Source: Escherichia coli
GTDB lineage: Bacteria > Pseudomonadota > Gammaproteobacteria > Enterobacterales > Enterobacteriaceae
Length of the DNA: 64,000 nucleotides
Reading direction: 5' to 3' (one strand)
Assembly (NCBI RefSeq): GCF_003991155.1
Contig: NZ_CP031293.1
In this document: piece by piece, positions 15,347 through 29,697 of the stretch
Layout of the letters: the number at the start of each line of letters is the position of its first letter
Numbering within the stretch: position 1 is the stretch's first letter
Notes under the pieces: model-generated
What the model was told of the DNA's origin: nothing
Database searches by the model: none
Seen by the model: the letters and a program-made list of their open reading frames with translations, nothing else
Position numbers and translations under genes: made by a program

Positions 15347-16201
15347 TCAGGGTGCAAGCTGTCTGACCCTTTCCCGATATTCTCCCGGGGTACAACCAAA
15401 CTCGCGAACAAACGCCTTGTGAAAAGATGATTCACTGGCATAGCCTACTGACTCAGCGATCACCACAACAGGGAGCGTTTCCCGGGAAAACATCTGGGCC
15501 GCTATTTGTAGACGCAACTTTGTTAATACAGCCAGCGGCGTGGTTCCGGAAACATCACGGAAAAGCTGGGCAAAACTTGCCCGGGACATGTGGGCGATGC
15601 TGGCCAGCGATTCGACGGTCCAGGCGTGTCCTGGCATTTCCAGCATTTGCTGTATTACCGCACCAAGACGTGGATGTAGAAGCAAACTGAGAATGTTTTT
15701 CTCTGTATTAACCTGTGCAATCCACTCACGCACCGCGAGGGTAAAGAATGTAGCGCAGATCTGGCTACACAGAGCATCCACTCCCGGCATTGCCGATCTG
15801 GATTCCTGTTGTAAAAACGGGATCGCCTCCCTCAGCCAGTTATATTCCACGCTATGGTTCACTGGTGCTACAAACAGCGTTTCCGGCAAAGACGTTAAAA
15901 AATAACGCGCCGAATGTTGCAGCCGAAGAGTGCCACAGACAATACAGGTCGATTCATTATCGACATGACTCAGGCGATGAGCTGAATTTTGTGGTAGCAG
16001 GACCACATTTCCCGGGCGTAATGTAAAAATCTCTCCCGTCGGCATTTCCAGCTTCGCCGCTCCTTGCGTTAACGCATGCCAACGAATAACCGACAATTCC
16101 CCGGCACCATGTGGAAGTTGCCAGTCACTTCCTAACACGCAATTCTTATCGATCGTTCCTTGTGGAGCGTTAAGCATCAACAAACGGCTAAGAGCATCCA
16201 T
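15347..16201 (-). CDS. rclR: AraC-family reactive-chlorine-responsive regulator RclR
   Basis: ORF 15347-16252; start placed at MDALSRLLML (284 aa); C-terminal AraC HTH; divergent from rclABC. Confidence 0.85.
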   Translation of the reverse strand: MDALSRLLMLNAPQGTIDKNCVLGSDWQLPHGAGELSVIRWHALTQGAAKLEMPTGEIFTLRPGNVVLLPQNSAHRLSHVDNESTCIVCGTLRLQHSARYFLTSLPETLFVAPVNHSVEYNWLREAIPFLQQESRSAMPGVDALCSQICATFFTLAVREWIAQVNTEKNILSLLLHPRLGAVIQQMLEMPGHAWTVESLASIAHMSRASFAQLFRDVSGTTPLAVLTKLRLQIAAQMFSRETLPVVVIAESVGYASESSFHKAFVREFGCTPGEYRERVRQLAP

Positions 16202-16427
16202 ATCAGACTCCTGAGTGGTTTTTTGATTACAAACACCAACAATCTTAGTCAATAATTAATCTAATACCATCAAATAGTTAATCATGATTTTTGTTTTGTG
16301 ATTCTGATTAAGAAAAAGAAAATACCAGACGATAAGACAAAATATCAAGCGTTGTGAAGAAATGTTATTTGCTCTTTTGCGTCTATAGTCATGATGTCAA
16401 ATGAACGCGTTTCGACAGGAAATCATC

Positions 16428-17753
16428 ATGAATAAATATCAGGCAGTTATTATTGGTTTTGGCAAGGCTGGAAAAACATTAGCCGTCACGCTGGCAAAAG
16501 CAGGTTGGCGTGTGGCTCTCATCGAACAATCAAATGCAATGTATGGCGGGACCTGTATTAATATCGGCTGTATCCCAACCAAAACATTGGTTCATGACGC
16601 ACAGCAGCACACAGATTTTGTCCGTGCCATACAGCGTAAAAATGAAGTGGTTAATTTTTTACGTAATAAGAATTTTCATAATCTTGCGGATATGCCCAAT
16701 ATCGACGTGATCGACGGCCAGGCGGAGTTTATCAATAATCATAGCCTGCGTGTTCATCGGCCTGAGGGAAATCTGGAAATTCATGGCGAGAAAATTTTTA
16801 TTAATACCGGTGCAAAAACCGTGGTTCCGCCAATTCCTGGAATTACCACCACGCCTGGTGTATATGACAGCACCGGATTACTTCATCTAAAAGAATTGCC
16901 TGGGCATTTAGGTATTTTGGGCGGCGGATATATTGGCGTTGAGTTCGCCTCTATGTTCGCTAATTTTGGCAGCAAGGTAACCATTTTAGAAGCAGCTTCG
17001 CTGTTTTTGCCTCGGGAAGATCGGGATATTGCTGATAACATCGCGACGATTTTACGCGATCAGGGCGTCGATATTATCCTCAATGCCCATGTGGAGCGAA
17101 TCAGTCACCATGAAAATCAAGTGCAAGTGCATAGCGAGCACGCCCAACTGGCGGTGGATGCACTGTTAATAGCTTCCGGTCGTCAACCGGCTACCGCTTC
17201 TTTACATCCAGAAAATGCCGGTATCGCAGTAAACGAGCGCGGGGCAATTGTCGTTGACAAGCGATTACATACCACCGCAGACAATATTTGGGCGATGGGA
17301 GATGTTACCGGCGGGCTGCAATTTACTTACATATCACTAGATGATTACCGCATTGTACGTGATGAGTTACTGGGTGAAGGCAAACGTAGTACTGATGATC
17401 GGAAAAATGTGCCTTATTCCGTATTTATGACACCGCCACTGTCCAGGGTTGGTATGACAGAAGAACAAGCCAGAGAGAGTGGTGCTGATATTCAGGTGGT
17501 GACATTGCCTGTAGCTGCAATTCCGCGCGCCAGAGTGATGAACGATACCCGTGGGGTATTAAAAGCGATTGTTGATAATAAAACCCAACGTATATTAGGG
17601 GCATCACTGCTGTGTGTTGACTCCCACGAGATGATCAATATAGTGAAAATGGTGATGGATGCCGGGCTGCCTTATAGCATATTACGCGATCAGATATTTA
17701 CTCATCCGTCGATGAGCGAATCACTCAATGATCTATTTTCATTAGTCAAATAA
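16428..17753 (+). CDS. rclA: pyridine nucleotide-disulfide oxidoreductase RclA
   Basis: Start placed at MNKYQAVIIGFGKAGK (441 aa); FAD-binding GxGxxG and redox-active CINIGC motif. Confidence 0.9.
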   Translation: MNKYQAVIIGFGKAGKTLAVTLAKAGWRVALIEQSNAMYGGTCINIGCIPTKTLVHDAQQHTDFVRAIQRKNEVVNFLRNKNFHNLADMPNIDVIDGQAEFINNHSLRVHRPEGNLEIHGEKIFINTGAKTVVPPIPGITTTPGVYDSTGLLHLKELPGHLGILGGGYIGVEFASMFANFGSKVTILEAASLFLPREDRDIADNIATILRDQGVDIILNAHVERISHHENQVQVHSEHAQLAVDALLIASGRQPATASLHPENAGIAVNERGAIVVDKRLHTTADNIWAMGDVTGGLQFTYISLDDYRIVRDELLGEGKRSTDDRKNVPYSVFMTPPLSRVGMTEEQARESGADIQVVTLPVAAIPRARVMNDTRGVLKAIVDNKTQRILGASLLCVDSHEMINIVKMVMDAGLPYSILRDQIFTHPSMSESLNDLFSLVK

Positions 17754-17861
17754 ACTCAAAATCAGACGCCAGAACAAATATTCTGGCGTCTCAGAGAAAA
17801 TAATCTTATTAATTCCCTGTTATTATATAACTTCTTAATCACTTCATTGATGGTATTTTAT

Positions 17862-18098
17862 ATGTTTAAAAAACCTGTTTTATTTGCAACACTATTATCT
17901 GGCGTTATGGCATTTTCCACCAATGCAGATGATAAAATAATTCTGAAACATATCAGCGTCTCGTCAGTATCAGCATCACCGACAGTTCTGGAGGATGCCA
18001 TTGCTGATATGGCCAGAAAATATAATGCTTCATCCTGGAAAGTCACATCGATGCGAATTGATAATAATTCAACCGCAACAGCAGTATTGTATAAATAA
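17862..18098 (+). CDS. rclB: small periplasmic protein RclB
   Basis: 78 aa from MFKKPVLFATLLSGVMAFSTNA (signal peptide); synteny. Confidence 0.8.
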   Translation: MFKKPVLFATLLSGVMAFSTNADDKIILKHISVSSVSASPTVLEDAIADMARKYNASSWKVTSMRIDNNSTATAVLYK

Positions 18099-18109
18099 GG
18101 ATGTTTACA

Positions 18110-18703
18110 ATGGAGAAATACCTGCACCTGTTAAGTCGGGGAGATAAAATTGGCCTGACATTGATTCGTCTGAGTATTGCGATTGTTTTTATGTGGATTG
18201 GGTTATTAAAGTTTGTCCCTTACGAGGCAGACAGCATTACACCATTCGTCGCAAACAGTCCACTAATGTCGTTCTTTTATGAACACCCGGAAGACTATAA
18301 ACAGTATCTGACTCACGAAGGCGAATACAAACCAGAAGCAAGAGCATGGCAAACGGCTAATAATACCTATGGTTTTTCCAACGGTCTTGGCGTCGTGGAG
18401 GTGATTATTGCTCTGCTGGTTTTGGCTAATCCTGTCAATCGCTGGTTAGGTTTATTGGGTGGGCTGATGGCATTTACCACGCCGCTGGTAACACTCTCAT
18501 TTTTAATCACCACCCCGGAGGCATGGGTACCCGCATTGGGTGACGCTCATCATGGTTTCCCTTATTTATCCGGTGCTGGTCGCCTGGTATTGAAAGATAC
18601 TCTGATGCTGGCAGGTGCTGTCATGATAATGGCAGATTCGGCGCGGGACATTCTTAAACAACGCAGTAATGAATCCAGTTCAACGTTAAAAACTGAATAT
18701 TGA
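18110..18703 (+). CDS. rclC: DoxX-like inner-membrane protein RclC
   Basis: 197 aa from MEKYLHLL; multiple TM helices; synteny. Confidence 0.85.
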   Translation: MEKYLHLLSRGDKIGLTLIRLSIAIVFMWIGLLKFVPYEADSITPFVANSPLMSFFYEHPEDYKQYLTHEGEYKPEARAWQTANNTYGFSNGLGVVEVIIALLVLANPVNRWLGLLGGLMAFTTPLVTLSFLITTPEAWVPALGDAHHGFPYLSGAGRLVLKDTLMLAGAVMIMADSARDILKQRSNESSSTLKTEY

Positions 18704-18864
18704 TAATCCGAACACTGTCTGTTGTTCACTTTTTCAGGCGTCAGGCTTTCCTTGCTAATGGGTGAAGCCTGACGCCATATTACCTGAAACAGGACAATGT
18801 AAGGTTCAATATAACTCCCTTATTAAAACATTTATGTCGTCTCAGGTAAAATAAGTGATTAATA

Positions 18865-19749
18865 TCAATCATGTATTTTTACAGCAAGACAACCACGAAC
18901 AAACTCAGGATTAAAATGTTTTACCGATTCCCCAACATAACCCAAATCTAGCGAACTAATTTGCGCCATTTCTTTCTCTGTCAGTGAGAAATCCCAGATA
19001 GCAAAATTTTCTTCGATACGCTGTTGATGTGTTGATTTCGGAATAACGACCACTCCCCGTTGAATATTCCAACGCAGAATGACCTGAGAAATCGATTTTT
19101 GATGGGCATCTGCAATACTCTGAAGCAGATTATTTTCAAAGGGTTTATGTCGTCCACCACCTAACGGAGCCCATGCTTCAGGCTGCACGTTATAATACTT
19201 CATGATTGCCAGCGCCTCTGGTTGGGCAAAATAGGGATGCAACTCGACCTGATTGACCATCGGTTTAACTCTTACCGTTTCACAAAAGTTCGCCAGAACA
19301 TGAGGGTAGAAATTGGAAACCCCAATCGCTTTTAATTTGCCCTCCTCATAGGCATCTTCGAGTGCACGCCACGCACTAAAATAATCGCGCATGGCCTGGT
19401 GCAATAAATAGAGATCGAAGTATTCTAGCCCCGATTTTTTTAATGATGCTTCAATACCTGCTGCTGCAATATCCTGATTCAACATATCCTGCACCCACAA
19501 TTTAGACGTTATAAATAACTCTTCTCGGGTACATAAACCTTCAGATATGGCTTCACGAACGGCTTCACCGACGGCATCTTCATTACCGTATACCGCTGCA
19601 GTGTCGATGAGTCGATAACCCGTGCGGATAGCATTCAACACTGACTGTTTGCACACGTCTTTATCGGTAACCTGAAAAACACCAAATCCCATCATCGGCA
19701 TTTTCAGATTGTTACTTAATACGGAAAATTCCACTGTCAGTCCCTCCAT
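18865..19749 (-). CDS. aldo-keto reductase
   Basis: 294 aa; AKR signature (GFGVFQ, IDTAAVYGNE, LHQ, IPKS). Confidence 0.85.
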   Translation of the reverse strand: MEGLTVEFSVLSNNLKMPMMGFGVFQVTDKDVCKQSVLNAIRTGYRLIDTAAVYGNEDAVGEAVREAISEGLCTREELFITSKLWVQDMLNQDIAAAGIEASLKKSGLEYFDLYLLHQAMRDYFSAWRALEDAYEEGKLKAIGVSNFYPHVLANFCETVRVKPMVNQVELHPYFAQPEALAIMKYYNVQPEAWAPLGGGRHKPFENNLLQSIADAHQKSISQVILRWNIQRGVVVIPKSTHQQRIEENFAIWDFSLTEKEMAQISSLDLGYVGESVKHFNPEFVRGCLAVKIHD

Positions 19750-19981
19750 TAGGTATGAACAATGAGTCTACGTTAAAACGTAACCTCAAATTAGTATGTG
19801 GATTTTGATATCACTTATGCAAAAAATTCATTAATAATGTAGGACTGAAACCTCTCTATTTTTGGGGCAATGAAGCAGACGCTATCAGTGCTTTTGCCTT
19901 GGGACTTGCTGTTTTTGATACACTTAGGGCCCAGGACATAACGAAAATGTGCGATATGACAAAGAATTAACGGAGTATGTG

Positions 19982-20839
19982 ATGATCAGGCAGAAGATTC
20001 TACAGCAGCTCCTGGAGTGGATTGAGTGTAATCTTGAGCACCCTATTTCAATCGAAGATATCGCACAGAAATCTGGCTACAGCAGACGCAACATCCAGCT
20101 TCTGTTCCGAAATTTCATGCATGTGCCTTTGGGAGAATACATTCGCAAACGAAGGCTTTGTCGTGCCGCCATTCTTGTCCGGCTCTCCGCGAAATCTATG
20201 CTTGATATTGCACTCTCTTTGCATTTTGATTCACAGCAATCATTCAGCCGCGAATTTAAAAAGTTATTCGGCTGCTCTCCCCGTGAATACCGCCACCGTG
20301 ATTATTGGGATCTCGCAAATATCTTCCCTTCTTTTTTAATACGTCAACAGCAAAAGACGGAGTGTAGATTAGTCAACTTTCCTGAGACACCTATTTTTGG
20401 CAATTCATTTAAATATGATATTGAAGTGTCGAATAAATCACCGGATGAAGAAGTCAAACTGCGACGTCATCATTTAGCCAGATGTATGAAGAATTTTAAG
20501 ACGGATATCTATTTCGTCTCCACGTTCGAACCGTCAACAAAATCGGTCGATTTGCTCACAGTTGAAACTTTTGCCGGTACGGTATGCAAACAAACCGATT
20601 CAGAGATGTCGAAAGAGTGGACAATTAACCGAGGACTGTATGCCTCTTTCCGCTATGAAGGTGAGTGGGAGCACTACCCTGAATGGGCGCGAAACCTCTA
20701 TCTGATGGAATTACCCGCCAGGAGGTTAGCCAGAATGAACGGCAGTGATATTGAGCGGTTTTATTACAATGAAGATTTCGTAGAAAAGGATAGCAATGAT
20801 GTTGTTTGCGAAATATTTATCCCTGTTCGTCCGGTTTAG
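19982..20839 (+). CDS. ykgA: AraC-family regulator with GyrI-like C-terminal domain (YkgA/Rob-like)
   Basis: ORF 19949-20839; start placed at MIRQKILQQLLEWIE (GGAG SD 5-6 nt upstream); N-terminal AraC double HTH, Rob-like layout. Confidence 0.75.
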   Translation: MIRQKILQQLLEWIECNLEHPISIEDIAQKSGYSRRNIQLLFRNFMHVPLGEYIRKRRLCRAAILVRLSAKSMLDIALSLHFDSQQSFSREFKKLFGCSPREYRHRDYWDLANIFPSFLIRQQQKTECRLVNFPETPIFGNSFKYDIEVSNKSPDEEVKLRRHHLARCMKNFKTDIYFVSTFEPSTKSVDLLTVETFAGTVCKQTDSEMSKEWTINRGLYASFRYEGEWEHYPEWARNLYLMELPARRLARMNGSDIERFYYNEDFVEKDSNDVVCEIFIPVRPV

Positions 20840-20963
20840 CCTGTAAATCCATCACATAAGATTTACCCTACCCTGCCACCGTCTAATCGGTACCAGGGTA
20901 GGTATTCAGTAAATAATGGCGCTGCGCATGTCAACGCCATTATTATTTATTACATCATCGCTT

Positions 20964-23900
20964 TTATTTCTCCTCAGCGCCTTCAGTATCTGCAGGAACG
21001 GCGTTAATTGTCACAGTCACTGGTTTCATTTCATACCCTCCATATGTCAAAGAGTTGAATGTGAATGTGTATGTACCTGGCTTGTTGGTACTAAATGTAC
21101 GCGTGATTTTCCCGTTCGCGAAATGGTCATTTTTCGACGGCAGGAACTGATAATCCGCCTCTGTCACCCCTTCCGGAGCCTCAATGTCGACCCACATGGT
21201 TCCTCCTACGGGGTTGACACCCGACATCAGAGTAACCGTCAGTGTTGCAGTTGTCTTCCCGTCCGCCACCAGAAAATCTACACGCTCTGGAGATGCAGCG
21301 AGCTCCGCGTTTTTATCATCCGCGACGAATTTAGATTCGGCAGTTTTCGTCGATTCCTGACCATCGGCCTGTTCCACTTTCGCCGTGAGTGTATATGTCG
21401 CTGCGACAGTGGTCGTGGCGGTGAAAATAGCCTGCCCTTGCTCATTCGTTGTCGCCGTCCCATTGGGAGTCAGAACTAAATTTTCCGGGCTGGCAGTCAG
21501 CGTCACTTCGCTATCTTTCAGCAGGTTGTTATTGGCATCAGTCACCGTAACTTTATACGTCTGTTTGGTTTTGCCATCCGCCACTGCACGGTTGCCAATC
21601 ACCTCAATACTGGAGATGGTCGCCGTAGTGTTATCGGCCACAAACGTTACAGACTGCGCATTCGAAGGCTGGTCATTTCCTGCTGACGCCGTGATCTCAT
21701 AGGTTCCGGCAGTCACGGAAACCACTTTCAGTTCCGCTTTACCCTCCTTGTCGGCGTTCACCATGATATTACCGTCTGCAAGCGGTTTGACGCCCCGAGG
21801 CAGATTAAAGACGACCACAGCGCCAGGAAGAAGGTTGCCGTATTGATCCTTAACCGTTGCCGTCAGCGTAAAGGCATCTTTGCCGTTTGCCACTTTTTGA
21901 GCAGCGGCGTCTACCTCCAGGCTCGCCTGACCGGTACTGAAATCCGCCTTGAATTTCACCTTGACCGTCTTCTGAGAGTTTTTCACCGAGGCCTCGATCT
22001 CAAGTTCCCCGGCAACCGTTGACATCAGCTCAATGTCAGCTTTACCTGCCGTATTGGTTGTTACCGTATTCCCCGTCTTGCTGGTCACGCCCTGCGGTAA
22101 AGTCAGCGTAACTTCTTGCCCCTGCAACGGGTTACCATAGCTGTCCACGACGGTCAGGGTTATCTGGTTAGCAGACTGTCCATTAGCCAGTTGGTTATTA
22201 ACCTTCACTGTCATATCACGAATCTCAGCCTTAGATGCGTCACCTGCAACGTTCAGCACCAGTGGCTGAGCAACGGCATTTTGGCCATTCACTCGCGGCA
22301 TCACAGACAACTGACCCGCGGCAGATCCCAGCGTTAAGGTCGCCACGTAGACCCCATTACTTTGCTCTGTCCAGCTTCCTGCTGAAGGTCGCTCACTCCC
22401 CGTGCTGGCGGCACCGCTAAACACTGGTGCATCGAGCTTCAGGCCACTAACAGGGTTCCCATACGCATCCTTCGCGGTGAAGGTAAGTTCCGTCGTCGCT
22501 TTGACGGTCGGAGCCTTATTGTCAGCAACAAGCGTAGAGTTCGCTGATGACATCTCCCCCGCAACGACAGTCAACCGCGCAGCATCGGTGGCTGCTGGCT
22601 GACCGTTGAATAGCGGCATAACGAGAAGCTCACCCGTCTTTCCCCCTGTGGTCAGCGTAGCGACATAGGAACCATCGCCCTGCTCGGTCCAGTTGGATAC
22701 CGTCGCCCCTTCAGACGCAGCACCCGTCAGGCTTGCCGACAGGGAAAGGCCACTGATAGCGTTGCCATGCGCATCTTTTGCAATAAGCGTCACGGTTGTG
22801 CTTTCGCCTGCTTTTACGCGGTCTGCGGCTACAGAGACTGTCGACTGGCCTGAAGATAACGCATCAGCCACCACGGTCACTTTAGCCGCATTCGCTGCCG
22901 CGTCCTGCCCATTGAGCTTCGGCATAACCTCTAATTCCCCCGCCGTAGTGCCGAGAGTAATCTGCGCAGTCCAGGTCCCGTCGCCATTATCCGTCCAGCC
23001 TGATGCCATAGACCCCGCAGCGGCTGCGCCAGATAATGACGGTGCATCTGGATTGAGGCCAATTACAGGGTTGCCATTGGCATCTTTTGCCGTCCAGATT
23101 GCCGTAAGCGTACCACCAACCACCGGTTTATCCGGATTCAGGGCGATGGTCGAATGTGCTGCATCAAGCGGCCCGGCGACAAACTTCAGCGTTTGTTGTA
23201 ATGAGCCCAACTGATACTGCTCGCTAAAGGCACGCACAACAACGTTTCCGGCACGGGTCGAAGAAACCGTGGCGCTGTAAACCCCTGGTTTTATTTCCGA
23301 AATGGCACCAATGGTTACACCATTAGTGTCTTGCGGAACAAGTCGCAGGCGGCTGGCTTCTCCCGTCACCGGATTACCCTCGGAGTCCACCGCTGTCAGT
23401 GTCAGCGTGTAGACTTGCTGACCATCAGCAACCACATCACCTGACGGCTCGTTAGCGCTCAGGGTGGAGTTTGCCACATCCATCATCGTGGCCCGCAGTT
23501 CTGCAGTGACAGTTTTGCTCATGTCATCAACGCTAACAGTAATCGTTGCCTCTCCTGACTGCGTTCCGGTAGTAAAGACAGACTGATACACCCCTGCTTC
23601 AGTTTCGGTGAACTCACCCAGTGTTGGCTTTGCCTGTGATTTAGTGGCCTTCAGGGTACGAGTCACAATATTTCCAGCCGGTTTGAACGTCAGCTCAGTC
23701 TTGATCTGATCTTTCATGCCCGTGACTGGCTGCCCCTCGGCGTCGCGCAGAGAAAGCACCAGTGGCTTTTGCTCACTACCGTTAGCAAGCATTTGAATAC
23801 GGCTCTGACCGTCAAGCGTTAACGCCGTGCGCTCGGCACTCATACCTGCTCCGGTAATGACCACCTCTGTCTGCACGTGTTTTGAGGCATTGCCTTTGTT

Positions 23901-25214
23901 ATCGTAGGCAACCGCAGAAATCGCATAATAATTGTCTTTGCCTGCCTGGTAAGCCGGGAGCGTCACTTGCCACTGATTGCCCTGCCCCGTAATTTTTCCG
24001 CCTGCGGCCAGCAAAGACGGCGCTTCCCATTGCACATTTTTCAGACCGTGAGTTGCTTTGCTGACCACAAGCCCCAGGGAAACCGTCTGGCCGCCCTTGC
24101 CTTCAATACGCTCAGGCAGAGCAATACGGATCACTTCAGATTTGCGATACTCAAGAACGATATTGTTATTACGCTCAACCAGGTCATAGCGGCTGCCTGC
24201 CAGCATTCGACGCTCGCGAATACTGTCTGTATCGAGTTGTTTTTCCAGAGGTTCGCCAATCCGATAATTAACTTCCAGGCCAAAGCGAGTGTCATTCTCA
24301 CCACTCTTGCCCTGCTTATGCCCGGCACTCAGGGTCAGAAGAGGCACTGGCGTGTAATTCACTTCAGCGGTAATCGCATGTGGATCTTTCTGGCGTTTAT
24401 CTTTACCAAACAGCCCGACTTCATCGCCATAATACTGTTCATACATCAGGCTTGCGCCAAGCTGCGGCCAGGCAGGTAAATAGCCCTCAGCACGAATATC
24501 CCAGCCATTCGCCGGGCGTTCCTGATAATCCTCAACATCCGGCGATTTTTTCCAGCCAGAAGCCCGGATATAACCATTGGCGCTCAGTTTCAAATAATCA
24601 CGCCAGTATTCCGCACCAACACCAATGCGGGTATGACTACGGGATAAATCATGATCGATAAAAGTATTCACCCCCGCCATCCAGTCATTTCCTGAAAAAT
24701 GACGCCAGCCAAAACCAATATTTGACTGAGTACGATCGTCGGTACGATGTATTGTCCCCTGAGTGAACAACATATTTGTCGGTGTATCATAAATCGGATA
24801 AAGCATTTCCAGCGAAGAATCCTTCAGCGAGAAATCTTTATCGACATTCAGTTTGACGCGCGCAGTACCGTATTTCCCGAGCCACTCCTGTATTTCCTGG
24901 TTAGCTTTAGCGGTGGCCATTCCGGTAATAAAATTACGTGTCGCATCGCTATCTGGCTGACTGCTTAAAAATGTCCCGGCATTTGCGGCAAACGACGCGA
25001 CATTTTTCTCCACGTTATTATCAGCAGTTACCGTAGTATTTCCCATGCTCAACCGTGGCTGAACCGCATGCTGCGCACGTGCCGCCATTACTGGGGTAAA
25101 GGTGACAGCGAGTGGAAAAAGAACCTGAACAGAGATATTTGCCCACGCCACGCAGCGGGCCAGAACTGAATAACGAAATTGTGGTTGTTTATGACCTATT
25201 TTATAACGTGACAT
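20964..25214 (-). CDS. eaeH: intimin/invasin-family inverse-autotransporter adhesin EaeH/FdeC, full length
   Basis: 1416-aa ORF; N-terminal beta-barrel region with intimin-like motifs (NIGFGWR, YDLVERNNNIVLEYRK) followed by many Big-like repeats. Confidence 0.9.
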   Translation of the reverse strand: MSRYKIGHKQPQFRYSVLARCVAWANISVQVLFPLAVTFTPVMAARAQHAVQPRLSMGNTTVTADNNVEKNVASFAANAGTFLSSQPDSDATRNFITGMATAKANQEIQEWLGKYGTARVKLNVDKDFSLKDSSLEMLYPIYDTPTNMLFTQGTIHRTDDRTQSNIGFGWRHFSGNDWMAGVNTFIDHDLSRSHTRIGVGAEYWRDYLKLSANGYIRASGWKKSPDVEDYQERPANGWDIRAEGYLPAWPQLGASLMYEQYYGDEVGLFGKDKRQKDPHAITAEVNYTPVPLLTLSAGHKQGKSGENDTRFGLEVNYRIGEPLEKQLDTDSIRERRMLAGSRYDLVERNNNIVLEYRKSEVIRIALPERIEGKGGQTVSLGLVVSKATHGLKNVQWEAPSLLAAGGKITGQGNQWQVTLPAYQAGKDNYYAISAVAYDNKGNASKHVQTEVVITGAGMSAERTALTLDGQSRIQMLANGSEQKPLVLSLRDAEGQPVTGMKDQIKTELTFKPAGNIVTRTLKATKSQAKPTLGEFTETEAGVYQSVFTTGTQSGEATITVSVDDMSKTVTAELRATMMDVANSTLSANEPSGDVVADGQQVYTLTLTAVDSEGNPVTGEASRLRLVPQDTNGVTIGAISEIKPGVYSATVSSTRAGNVVVRAFSEQYQLGSLQQTLKFVAGPLDAAHSTIALNPDKPVVGGTLTAIWTAKDANGNPVIGLNPDAPSLSGAAAAGSMASGWTDNGDGTWTAQITLGTTAGELEVMPKLNGQDAAANAAKVTVVADALSSGQSTVSVAADRVKAGESTTVTLIAKDAHGNAISGLSLSASLTGAASEGATVSNWTEQGDGSYVATLTTGGKTGELLVMPLFNGQPAATDAARLTVVAGEMSSANSTLVADNKAPTVKATTELTFTAKDAYGNPVSGLKLDAPVFSGAASTGSERPSAGSWTEQSNGVYVATLTLGSAAGQLSVMPRVNGQNAVAQPLVLNVAGDASKAEIRDMTVKVNNQLANGQSANQITLTVVDSYGNPLQGQEVTLTLPQGVTSKTGNTVTTNTAGKADIELMSTVAGELEIEASVKNSQKTVKVKFKADFSTGQASLEVDAAAQKVANGKDAFTLTATVKDQYGNLLPGAVVVFNLPRGVKPLADGNIMVNADKEGKAELKVVSVTAGTYEITASAGNDQPSNAQSVTFVADNTTATISSIEVIGNRAVADGKTKQTYKVTVTDANNNLLKDSEVTLTASPENLVLTPNGTATTNEQGQAIFTATTTVAATYTLTAKVEQADGQESTKTAESKFVADDKNAELAASPERVDFLVADGKTTATLTVTLMSGVNPVGGTMWVDIEAPEGVTEADYQFLPSKNDHFANGKITRTFSTNKPGTYTFTFNSLTYGGYEMKPVTVTINAVPADTEGAEEK

Positions 25215-25764
25215 TGAGATAATTTCCTGATGAACGAATTAACGAACATAGGCAGACACAAATAATGGCGTCTGCTTGTCAGAAAAACCGGGGATTTCCC
25301 GGTTTCCTTTTCCGCAGAAAAGGAAATACCTTTATGTAAGAAAGTACACCGCCACCTAATATATCCAGTGCCTGTAGCCTCTCATCAGGTGGTTGGGCGC
25401 GGGATTATATTTTTATTTATGGGTGAAAATTTAGCTTTTTGTGCAAGTCATTAAATAGATACCTAAGTTATATTTCTTACTCTGCGGACAGTGAATAATT
25501 CATTATTCAGAGTGAATAATAATGACCTGCCTTTAATTAGCAACTATTGGAAATACGTCGAAGTAGGTATATACGCCAGGATAAACCGATATATTTTTTA
25601 TGGATATTCATTTTCCTTCATCAGACTGTGAATTGCAGGGATATCGAACTTGCACGACTCATCGCAACACTCAAACAGATTTATGAATTTCGTTCATAAC
25701 CCCTGACAAATCCTGCCGTCTAATCGAGCTTTTCCCTTTACGTTATGCTTCTCATGAACGATAA

Positions 25765-28688
<2,924 letters not shown>

Positions 28689-28770: not shown

Positions 28771-29697
28771 TTAACTTTCTATTTTTACTCTTTTCTCCAC
28801 CATAAAATCAATAAAAGCACGAACTTTAGAGGGCATTCTCACCCGTGATGAAACATATATATAAAATCCAGGAAATGAAACGGCCCAATCCTCAAGAATC
28901 GGCTGTAACTTGCCCGCATTGATATGCTCAGCGATTGCAAAATCCAGATGTTGAATGATACCCGTTCCATTCAGCGCCATTCGTATCATGCTTTCGTCAT
29001 CATTAGAAATATACTTACCTGACACCTCTATTTCGAACTCTTCATTACCCCCCACAACATTCGAAAACTCCCATGCTGAGAGTGCACCGCTACTTTTATG
29101 CCGCAACCGAAGACAATTATGGTTACTCAATTCCTGAGGAGTTTCAGGAATACCGTGTTCTTTTAAATAATCTGGCGATGCCACAGTAACCAGTTTAATA
29201 AGCGGAGAAACAGGAACGGCAGTCATATGCTCATCCAGTCCTTGCTCAAGACGTATGCCCACATCACAGCCGTCCGCAATAATGTTAGATAAACCGTCAT
29301 CCATAATGAGTTCTATCTTTGTTTTGGGGTAACGAGTAAGAAACTCGCCAATATGAGGCTCAACAAGCATCCGTGCTGCAACACGGGAGGAATTTATTCT
29401 CAACAGGCCTGTAGGTTCAAGTTGGGTATCACCAACATCTTTCAAAGCATCATCAATTTGCCCCAAAGCCGACACCAGCACTTCATACAGACGCTGTCCT
29501 TCCTCAGTAAGCGACATATTGCGGGTCGTACGGTATATCAGCTTGGTGTTAAGACGTTCCTCAAGAGATTTTAAATTCTGGGACAATGCGGCCCGCGTAA
29601 TACCCATTTCAGAAGCGGCTCTGGAAAAACTGCCGGCACGAACAATAAGCGCAAACCAGGCAAGAGAAGGCAAAATTGAAGGCTCTATTTTCATCAT
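28771..29697 (-). CDS. LysR-family transcriptional regulator
   Basis: ORF 28771-29760; start placed at MMKIEPS; LysR HTH (FSRAASEMGITRAALSQNLKSLE); divergent from hydrolase gene. Confidence 0.8.
   Translation of the reverse strand: MMKIEPSILPSLAWFALIVRAGSFSRAASEMGITRAALSQNLKSLEERLNTKLIYRTTRNMSLTEEGQRLYEVLVSALGQIDDALKDVGDTQLEPTGLLRINSSRVAARMLVEPHIGEFLTRYPKTKIELIMDDGLSNIIADGCDVGIRLEQGLDEHMTAVPVSPLIKLVTVASPDYLKEHGIPETPQELSNHNCLRLRHKSSGALSAWEFSNVVGGNEEFEIEVSGKYISNDDESMIRMALNGTGIIQHLDFAIAEHINAGKLQPILEDWAVSFPGFYIYVSSRVRMPSKVRAFIDFMVEKRVKIES

Follow-up and report, generated by a model that had tools for sequence, protein, structure and literature searches.

The question raised by the Escherichia coli locus ykgEFG-rclR-rclABC-AKR-ykgA-fdeC (AKR, aldo-keto reductase) is which gene the regulator YkgA controls. 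The locus lies in the window, the 64,000-nucleotide stretch of E. coli chromosome that was analyzed here, and within it a Rob-like AraC regulator with a GyrI-like domain (ykgA) is arranged divergently from a reductase gene directly beside the reactive-chlorine genes rclRABC. This layout, described in a first-pass annotation made from the sequence, was borne out by the open reading frames (ORFs), Pfam and RefSeq, but the functional part of that annotation, which took the pair to be a regulator-reductase module extending the chlorine response, is disfavoured by the comparative evidence presented below. The reading preferred here is a composite one, to which a probability of about 0.5 was assigned: YkgA would be an adhesin-linked, Rob-like activator working at a box in the promoter of the adhesin gene fdeC (eaeH), and the reductase, a carbonyl reductase, would be independent of it and have a promoter of its own. 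The gene pair was already annotated, its remnants in K-12 were known, and YkgA is an uncharacterized member of a well-known kind. What is added here is a candidate target for YkgA, reached by way of its recognition helix, a class II-spaced box and the partnership of its gene with fdeC.

YkgA was matched in Pfam by PF12833 (HTH_18, 69.8 bits) and PF00165 (HTH_AraC, 59.4 bits), both over their cut-offs, and by PF06445 (GyrI-like, 45.3 bits against a cut-off of 26), the last covering residues 138-294 of the 296-aa ORF; the match to Rob extended as far as residue 288. It aligned end to end with the Rob structures 7vwy and 1d5y (E 1e-38, residues 5-283), and its N-terminal domain was also homologous to those of SoxS, MarA and RamA. 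Scores against the corresponding NCBIfam models were 193.8 bits for RobA (NF012228, cut-off 380) and 172.2 bits for NF011701 (cut-off 426); as these fall below the RobA equivalog cut-offs, YkgA is a Rob paralogue rather than Rob itself. The two proteins share the plan of an N-terminal double helix-turn-helix followed by a C-terminal GyrI-like domain, as well as the second recognition helix, SQQxFxRxF (helix 6), which is kept throughout the YkgA family. They differ at helix 3, which reads SRRNIQLLF in YkgA and SKWHLQRMF in Rob, the general form in MarA, SoxS, Rob and RamA being SKW[HY]LQR[ML]F. The motif SGYSRR[NHY]I was found in YkgA and in all eleven relatives (12/12 family members), where MarA, SoxS, Rob and RamA have GYSKW[HY]LQR. 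Judged from these alignments, YkgA is a member of a distinct Rob-like regulator subfamily marked by its helix-3 signature.

Orthologues of YkgA were nearly limited to Escherichia, with sporadic relatives of 63-66% identity elsewhere. A profile search of genome contigs with the YkgA-family alignment returned three Escherichia loci only, plus unrelated AraC proteins, and the wider family contexts used here were taken from exact-protein look-ups and a plasmid collection. Unlike Rob, YkgA has a narrow and patchy distribution, mostly in Escherichia, and its gene does not stand alone but is linked to adhesin loci. The gene is under purifying selection, with a ratio of nonsynonymous to synonymous substitution rates (dN/dS) of 0.10-0.21 in comparisons that included AKR-less lineages.

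Genome comparisons suggest that the conserved genetic partner of ykgA is fdeC, and not the reductase or the chlorine-stress genes. In every YkgA relative of at least 63% identity with a readable downstream flank, the next gene encoded a convergent FdeC-type inverse autotransporter; the one exception to the pairing among these relatives came from a contig riddled with insertion sequence (IS) elements. The ykgA-fdeC pair was seen in Salmonella enterica (YkgA 66%, FdeC 70%), in the loci designated L004 and L029, in strain E69 and in two other Escherichia species. The outer flanks of the pair were unrelated: in Salmonella they held hipA and glycogen genes, in L029 a prpR-like gene and in L004 other genes. 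Over matched segments the FdeC proteins were 59-80% identical to FdeC of the window, and in an alignment of E. coli, E69, Salmonella and L004 conservation of the approximately 230 nt upstream of fdeC was far above that of the proteins.

A marbox-like box is present in the fdeC promoter, in the layout TTGCACAAAAAGCTAAAT, 19 nt, TATAAT. Read in forward orientation, the box (CTTGCACAAAAAGCTAAAT) has a single mismatch to the marbox consensus AYNGCACNNWNNRYYAAAY, and box and predicted -10 element were invariant or changed at one position in E. coli, E69, Salmonella and L004. Marbox matches at no more than one mismatch numbered three in the window against 1.5 expected, which is unremarkable when taken alone. 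A class II promoter is defined by a forward-orientation marbox centred between -36 and -55 and overlapping the -35 element (PMC12052159). The fdeC box has this orientation and position relative to the predicted fdeC start, and it resembles the boxes of class II mar/sox/rob promoters in fitting the marbox at all specified positions but one, in forward orientation and near -41. The likeness is less complete across the YkgA-family sites, which keep a central AAAAAGCTAA but vary in the canonical GCAC core.

The same box was sought in other YkgA-family contexts. At no more than three mismatches there were eight matches, in 8 of 10 family contexts (160 kb), and all had a -10 element spaced by 19 nt, whereas control DNA (208 kb) gave one match and none with a -10. 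The sequence TAnnnT followed the box at exactly 19 nt at 10/12 sites, the spacer itself not being conserved. In L025 the box (0 mismatches) lay upstream of an EAL-domain gene that converges with the gene of a 64% YkgA relative. In L005, from Klebsiella sp., it preceded (3 mismatches) a decarboxylase-permease operon that converges with the gene of a 46% relative, and in L028, a Siccibacter IncFII plasmid, it was found (1 mismatch) beside a 44% relative, with inverse-autotransporter genes just upstream of the regulator. In L030, L033 and L034 (Enterobacter and E. coli IncF plasmids), it was placed about 80-95 nt upstream of YkgA relatives of 36-42% identity. The cargo genes of these contexts thus differ, being fdeC, an EAL gene, a decarboxylase-permease operon and type I secretion/Ig-adhesin operons (Ig, immunoglobulin). 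The core of the family sites read GCAC, GCAT, GCCC, GCTC or GCCA around the conserved central motif. As the family contexts are not phylogenetically independent, they provide strong circumstantial evidence, and not a formal test, that the box follows the regulator family and not the cargo gene. The altered helix 3 may reflect a changed DNA specificity, in keeping with the variable GCAC core.

The operons of the last three contexts may be described in their own right. In L030 (7001-14852), L033 (7001-14843) and L034 (2845-10696), a regulator with the SGYSRR helix heads a type I secretion/adhesin operon whose cargo comprises a LuxR/GerE protein, TolC, HlyD, ABC type I components and a giant Ig-like or Big_13 protein. 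Such operons were chromosomal in Enterobacter and carried by IncF plasmids in E. coli.

In the preferred reading, YkgA would bind as a monomer, by analogy with Rob, to the marbox-like TTGCACAAAAAGCTAAAT at the -35 of fdeC, and from there would recruit RNA polymerase and activate fdeC transcription. A small-molecule ligand on the GyrI-like domain may control YkgA, as it does Rob, and the reductase would stand outside direct YkgA control. It is tentatively proposed, with somewhat less than even confidence, that the whole SGYSRR[NHY]I subfamily consists of ligand-sensing activators dedicated to adhesin loci and acting through a class II box, TGCnnAAAAAGCTAAnT, with 19 nt between it and the -10. 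If so, the targets would be FdeC and the type I-secreted Ig-like adhesins on IncF plasmids, and YkgA would be the missing specific activator of FdeC, a vaccine candidate, with the neighbouring reductase unrelated to it. YkgA might then work together with a structured leader that masks the fdeC ribosome-binding site, and a dedicated activator sensing a small molecule would explain when FdeC is switched on. As an adhesin, FdeC is broadly conserved in E. coli and has drawn study as a vaccine antigen, and silencing by H-NS and a response to host contact have been reported for it; it is also said, in work by Easton from 2014, to be regulated by H-NS and temperature. The connection of the YkgA family with its box and with adhesin loci did not appear in the literature searched, and among the top-ranked results of a search no paper joined eaeH with MarA or a marbox.

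Rns/CfaD, AggR and PerA are AraC-type activators encoded beside their own adhesin genes, often countering H-NS silencing, and the YkgA gene is likewise adhesin-adjacent. These activators differ from YkgA in that they are not known to have a GyrI-like domain or to be Rob-like, and the link between YkgA and adhesins is purely genomic.

Several points weigh against YkgA as the activator of fdeC. The two genes are convergent, and 4.6 kb separates the box from ykgA, an unusual arrangement for a local regulator, and the fdeC start from which the class II position was taken is a prediction. Two of the helix-3 residues that contact GCAC in the MarA-DNA structure are gone from YkgA. The fdeC box is close to the canonical marbox, so that MarA, SoxS or Rob might be its binder. 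The loci of the YkgA family are not phylogenetically independent, and box and regulator could therefore be partly co-inherited; in L026 and L034, moreover, only degenerate boxes were present. Finally, the divergent layout and a 13-14 nt motif shared between the upstream regions of ykgA and the reductase leave room for control of the reductase by YkgA.

The point concerning MarA, SoxS and Rob leads to a first alternative, in which YkgA would be a fourth global regulator of the mar/sox/rob type with a dispersed stress regulon, its neighbours being incidental and the fdeC marbox being served by MarA, SoxS or Rob. The full-length homology of YkgA to Rob, its N-terminal homology to SoxS, MarA and RamA, and the single mismatch of the fdeC box to the canonical marbox are all consistent with such a role. 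YkgA is reportedly treated as a MarA/SoxS/Rob homologue by Martin, Gillette and Rosner in 2000. In a transcriptome of adherent-invasive E. coli, ykgA was reportedly upregulated together with soxS. YkgA was also grouped with MarA, SoxS and Rob by Blanchard 2007 (PMC2064960), according to which its function and targets had not been identified. This alternative is nevertheless considered unlikely: the helix-3 signature, invariant in the family, is unlike the one carried by MarA, SoxS, Rob and RamA, the box accompanies YkgA-family genes irrespective of the cargo, and the ykgA-fdeC pair is kept despite changed flanks.

A second alternative, which corresponds to the reading of the first-pass annotation, is that the GyrI-like domain of YkgA detects a small electrophile or aldehyde and that YkgA switches on the divergent reductase, the two forming a YqhC-like detoxification divergon functionally allied to rcl. 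The two genes are both intact and only 247 bp apart, two copies of a conserved 13-14 nt motif lie one near each gene, and characterized relatives of the reductase (YvgN, YtbE and DkgA) reduce reactive carbonyls. The model system, the YqhC-yqhD-dkgA divergon, consists of an AraC-family regulator divergent from NADPH-dependent aldehyde and aldo-keto reductases. YqhC differs from YkgA in having another sensor domain, which is not known to be GyrI-like. In contrast to a divergon of this type, however, neither gene keeps the AKR-ykgA pairing beyond part of Escherichia, and the search for a shared family operator found none.

The lack of conservation was apparent from both sides. The neighbours of the reductase did not include a YkgA-type regulator in any of the three contexts inspected: in Klebsiella the reductase is the last gene of a hydrolase-MFS-AKR operon that diverges from a LysR gene, in Vibrio natriegens it is a solitary gene, and in S. 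salamae it comes after an SBP_bac_5 gene. Conversely, ykgA was present without the reductase in Salmonella enterica CP191473, L004, L029, 'E. coli' E69 and ATCC 8739. Within E. coli, the reductase was internally deleted and ykgA intact in about one third of genomes (10/30 evenly spaced rows of the genome ranking), ATCC 8739 being an example, so that many strains lose the reductase yet keep a constrained ykgA. Approximately 80 nt upstream of the reductase were recognizably, though partly, homologous among E. coli, S. salamae and Klebsiella, the latter two being without ykgA, and the reductase has therefore brought its own promoter region.

The association with chlorine stress fared no better. 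In Escherichia sp. E1V33 and E. whittamii (L007 and L008) the gene order is ykgE-AKR-ykgA-fdeC-second reductase, and no rcl genes are present at this position; the position next to rclRABC is therefore a peculiarity of the E. coli lineage. As rclC and the reductase are convergent, co-transcription does not occur. A literature search turned up no expression data tying the reductase or ykgA to hypochlorous acid.

The intergenic region was compared between E. coli, Escherichia sp. E1V33 and E. whittamii, and two blocks were found to be invariant. The motif TTTGATA(N0-1)CACTTA occurs twice in the 64 kb, against 0 expected, with one copy in each invariant block (Box 1 and Box 2); 2 of 500 Markov simulations produced a gapped repeat as long as 14 nt. 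An ordinary repeat search had missed this pair owing to the 1-nt insertion or deletion between the copies. Box 2 was kept with two mismatches in the AKR-less strain E69. The transcription start site (TSS) of K-12 ykgA lies 15 nt downstream of the centre of TGTATCAAAAATAGC (S2 Table, PMC12052159). This maps to position ~19930 of the window (coordinate offset 776 checked), from which it follows that TG-a-TACACT, overlapped by Box 2, reads as an extended -10 of ykgA. Box 1 falls inside the upstream block inherited with the reductase. With the two copies so placed, the motif may be promoter sequence and not an operator; of the two, promoter sequence is the more likely on these positions. Its candidacy as a YkgA operator, which had been entertained, was accordingly weakened. 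The motif was absent upstream of fdeC, and a comparison of shared 12-mers between the upstream regions of ykgA and fdeC gave chance-level matches only. The AKR-ykgA intergenic region contained no marbox at up to one mismatch and no YkgA-family box at up to four mismatches, and a sigma-70/terminator scan of 18650-21050 gave nothing in the intergenic region and no enrichment. As a separate observation, a 147-bp insertion is present between the two invariant blocks in E1V33 (L007 9700-9860) and in E. whittamii, at the point corresponding to ~19881 of the window, and is absent from E. coli.

Taken with the pairing, which is found in part of Escherichia only while orthologues of each gene occur elsewhere without the other, these results make a divergon rather improbable. 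The reductase is probably not the partner of the regulator, and the two are most likely independently evolving functional genes that are neighbours only within Escherichia. A divergent gene pair should accordingly not be read as regulator and target before the conservation of the pairing has been checked.

That ykgA and the reductase are instead functionless accessory DNA heading for loss, as happened in K-12, is very improbable: K-12 carries pseudogenes of ykgA, ykgQ and eaeH, databases hold many truncated YkgA fragments, the GC content of the region is low (38-45%) and IS elements have inserted in some strains, but dN/dS was 0.06-0.21 across species, reductase-less lineages included, at least 80% of the pair (18865-20839) is present in 2933/5426 complete E. 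coli genomes, and the reductase is 80-85% identical across bacterial families.

A comparison with the K-12 ykgA region had been suggested as a check. Three pseudogenes occupy the same position in K-12 MG1655: ykgA (b0300) is interrupted by IS3A, ykgQ is all that is left of the reductase (129 bp), and eaeH is a truncated fdeC; the window therefore represents the intact ancestral state of this region. In K-12-like strains the 3' end of ykgA has been lost as well. Positions 18000-22000 match several sequenced E. coli chromosomes at 100% identity. The interval 18865-20839 is unusually polymorphic in E. coli, with about 94.5% identity to the allele of ATCC 8739 (L024) and K-12, 1430 genomes in the 90-95% identity band and a synonymous divergence (dS) of 0.17 for ykgA between two E. 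coli strains, which suggests old alleles or recombination around fdeC.

The reductase itself corresponds, in intact form, to the remnant that survives in K-12 as the pseudogene ykgQ. It matched PF00248 (Aldo_ket_red) over nearly its full length (E 8.5e-43, 146.9 bits), and alignment with 1vp5 showed a complete catalytic tetrad, D44, Y49, K78 and H112, within the motifs LIDTA, VYGNE, TSKLW and LLHQ. A total of 148 AKR sequences in the PDB matched it at E <= 1e-30, the nearest solved structures being 1vp5 (T. maritima TM1009, E 1.5e-84), 4mhb, YtbE (3b3d) and YvgN (3d3f). It has the same fold family and tetrad as the AKR5-type reductases (DkgA/YqhE, DkgB, YvgN, YtbE and TM1009), among which its best solved matches are found (1vp5, 3b3d, 3d3f and 1mzr). 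It differs from DkgA and DkgB in falling below both equivalog cut-offs, with scores of 234.2 against 425 and 164 against 327, respectively. Orthologues of 80-85% identity were found in Klebsiella, Kluyvera, Enterobacter, S. salamae, Vibrio and Marinomonas, and dN/dS was 0.06-0.14. The protein is most likely a widespread and strongly conserved carbonyl reductase of the DkgA/YvgN/YtbE type, dependent on NAD(P)H. Proteins from Vibrio, Marinomonas and Marinobacterium (P0160, P0174, P0194 and P0209) were 79-82% identical to it, so that the matches from these genera are about as close as those from Klebsiella or Salmonella salamae (85%). Similarity of this degree across genera points to horizontal spread or unusually strong constraint. 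A site in the K-12 ykgA-ykgQ intergenic region that was reported as positive for AtoC in chromatin immunoprecipitation (ACTATACGGAAAATTCCACT, PMC3118216) lies across the junction left by the deletion in ykgQ; its counterpart in the intact locus consists of the first codons of the reductase, at ~19716-19737.

In E. coli, E69, Salmonella and L004, conservation of the leader predicted upstream of fdeC exceeded that of the coding sequence. The leader folds with a minimum free energy of -66.6 kcal/mol (z -4.78) into three hairpins, in each of which there is one compensatory change. The middle one, CCGGG-AAAUC-CCCGG with U5 after it, is terminator-like. Its U-tract, UUUUUCUGA, is predicted to pair with the Shine-Dalgarno region UCAGGAAA, in a manner resembling an RNA thermometer of the fourU type. 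A comparison of the leader with Rfam gave no family matches.

Coordinates of the features are collected in Table 1. For the reductase, the GTG start at 19734 was preferred over ATG 19749, as GGAGG lies upstream and RefSeq agrees. For ykgA, ATG 19982 was preferred over GTG 19949, with GGAG upstream, agreement with RefSeq and co-linearity with Rob from residue 5. The limits of the intergenic region follow from these two starts.

Table 1. Features of the locus between the reactive-chlorine genes and the genes beyond fdeC, in coordinates of the window
Feature	Position	Strand	Basis or remark
rclR and rclABC, reactive-chlorine locus	15347..18703	rclR -, rclABC +	RefSeq annotation
Aldo-keto reductase (AKR), 289 aa, GTG start	18865..19734	-	ORF and RefSeq
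AKR-ykgA intergenic region, 247 bp	19735..19981		
Box 1, TTTGATATCACTTA, with the palindrome TGATATCA within it	19804..19817	+	Inside the inherited upstream block of the reductase
Box 2, TTTGATACACTTA	19914..19926	+	Overlaps the ykgA core promoter, extended -10 TG-a-TACACT
ykgA, full length, 285 aa, two AraC helix-turn-helix motifs and a C-terminal GyrI-like domain	19982..20839	+	ORF and Pfam
fdeC (eaeH), inverse-autotransporter adhesin, convergent with ykgA	20964..25214	-	RefSeq annotation
Predicted structured fdeC leader, ~183 nt	25215..25397	-	Alignment and folding
Predicted fdeC -10, TATAAT	25404..25409	-	Exactly 19 nt downstream of the box
Marbox-like box of the fdeC promoter, CTTGCACAAAAAGCTAAAT, forward orientation	25429..25447	-	Centre near -41, predicted start
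Second AKR	25780..26631		Far side of fdeC
Third AKR	26658..27647		Far side of fdeC
LysR regulator	27678..28571		Beyond fdeC
LysR regulator	28771..29697		Beyond fdeC

Beyond fdeC, the RefSeq annotation of one identical strain lists two further aldo/keto reductases and two LysR regulators, of which K-12 retains a remnant of only 90 bp (ykgP). The second reductase is only 44% identical to the first. On the other side of the pair, rclC and the reductase converge over a gap of 161 bp, within which lies a perfect 12-bp inverted repeat, GGCGTCAGGCTT ... AAGCCTGACGCC, at 18737-18776. As there is no U-run on either strand, this is not a canonical terminator, and it may be a repetitive extragenic palindromic (REP)-like element.

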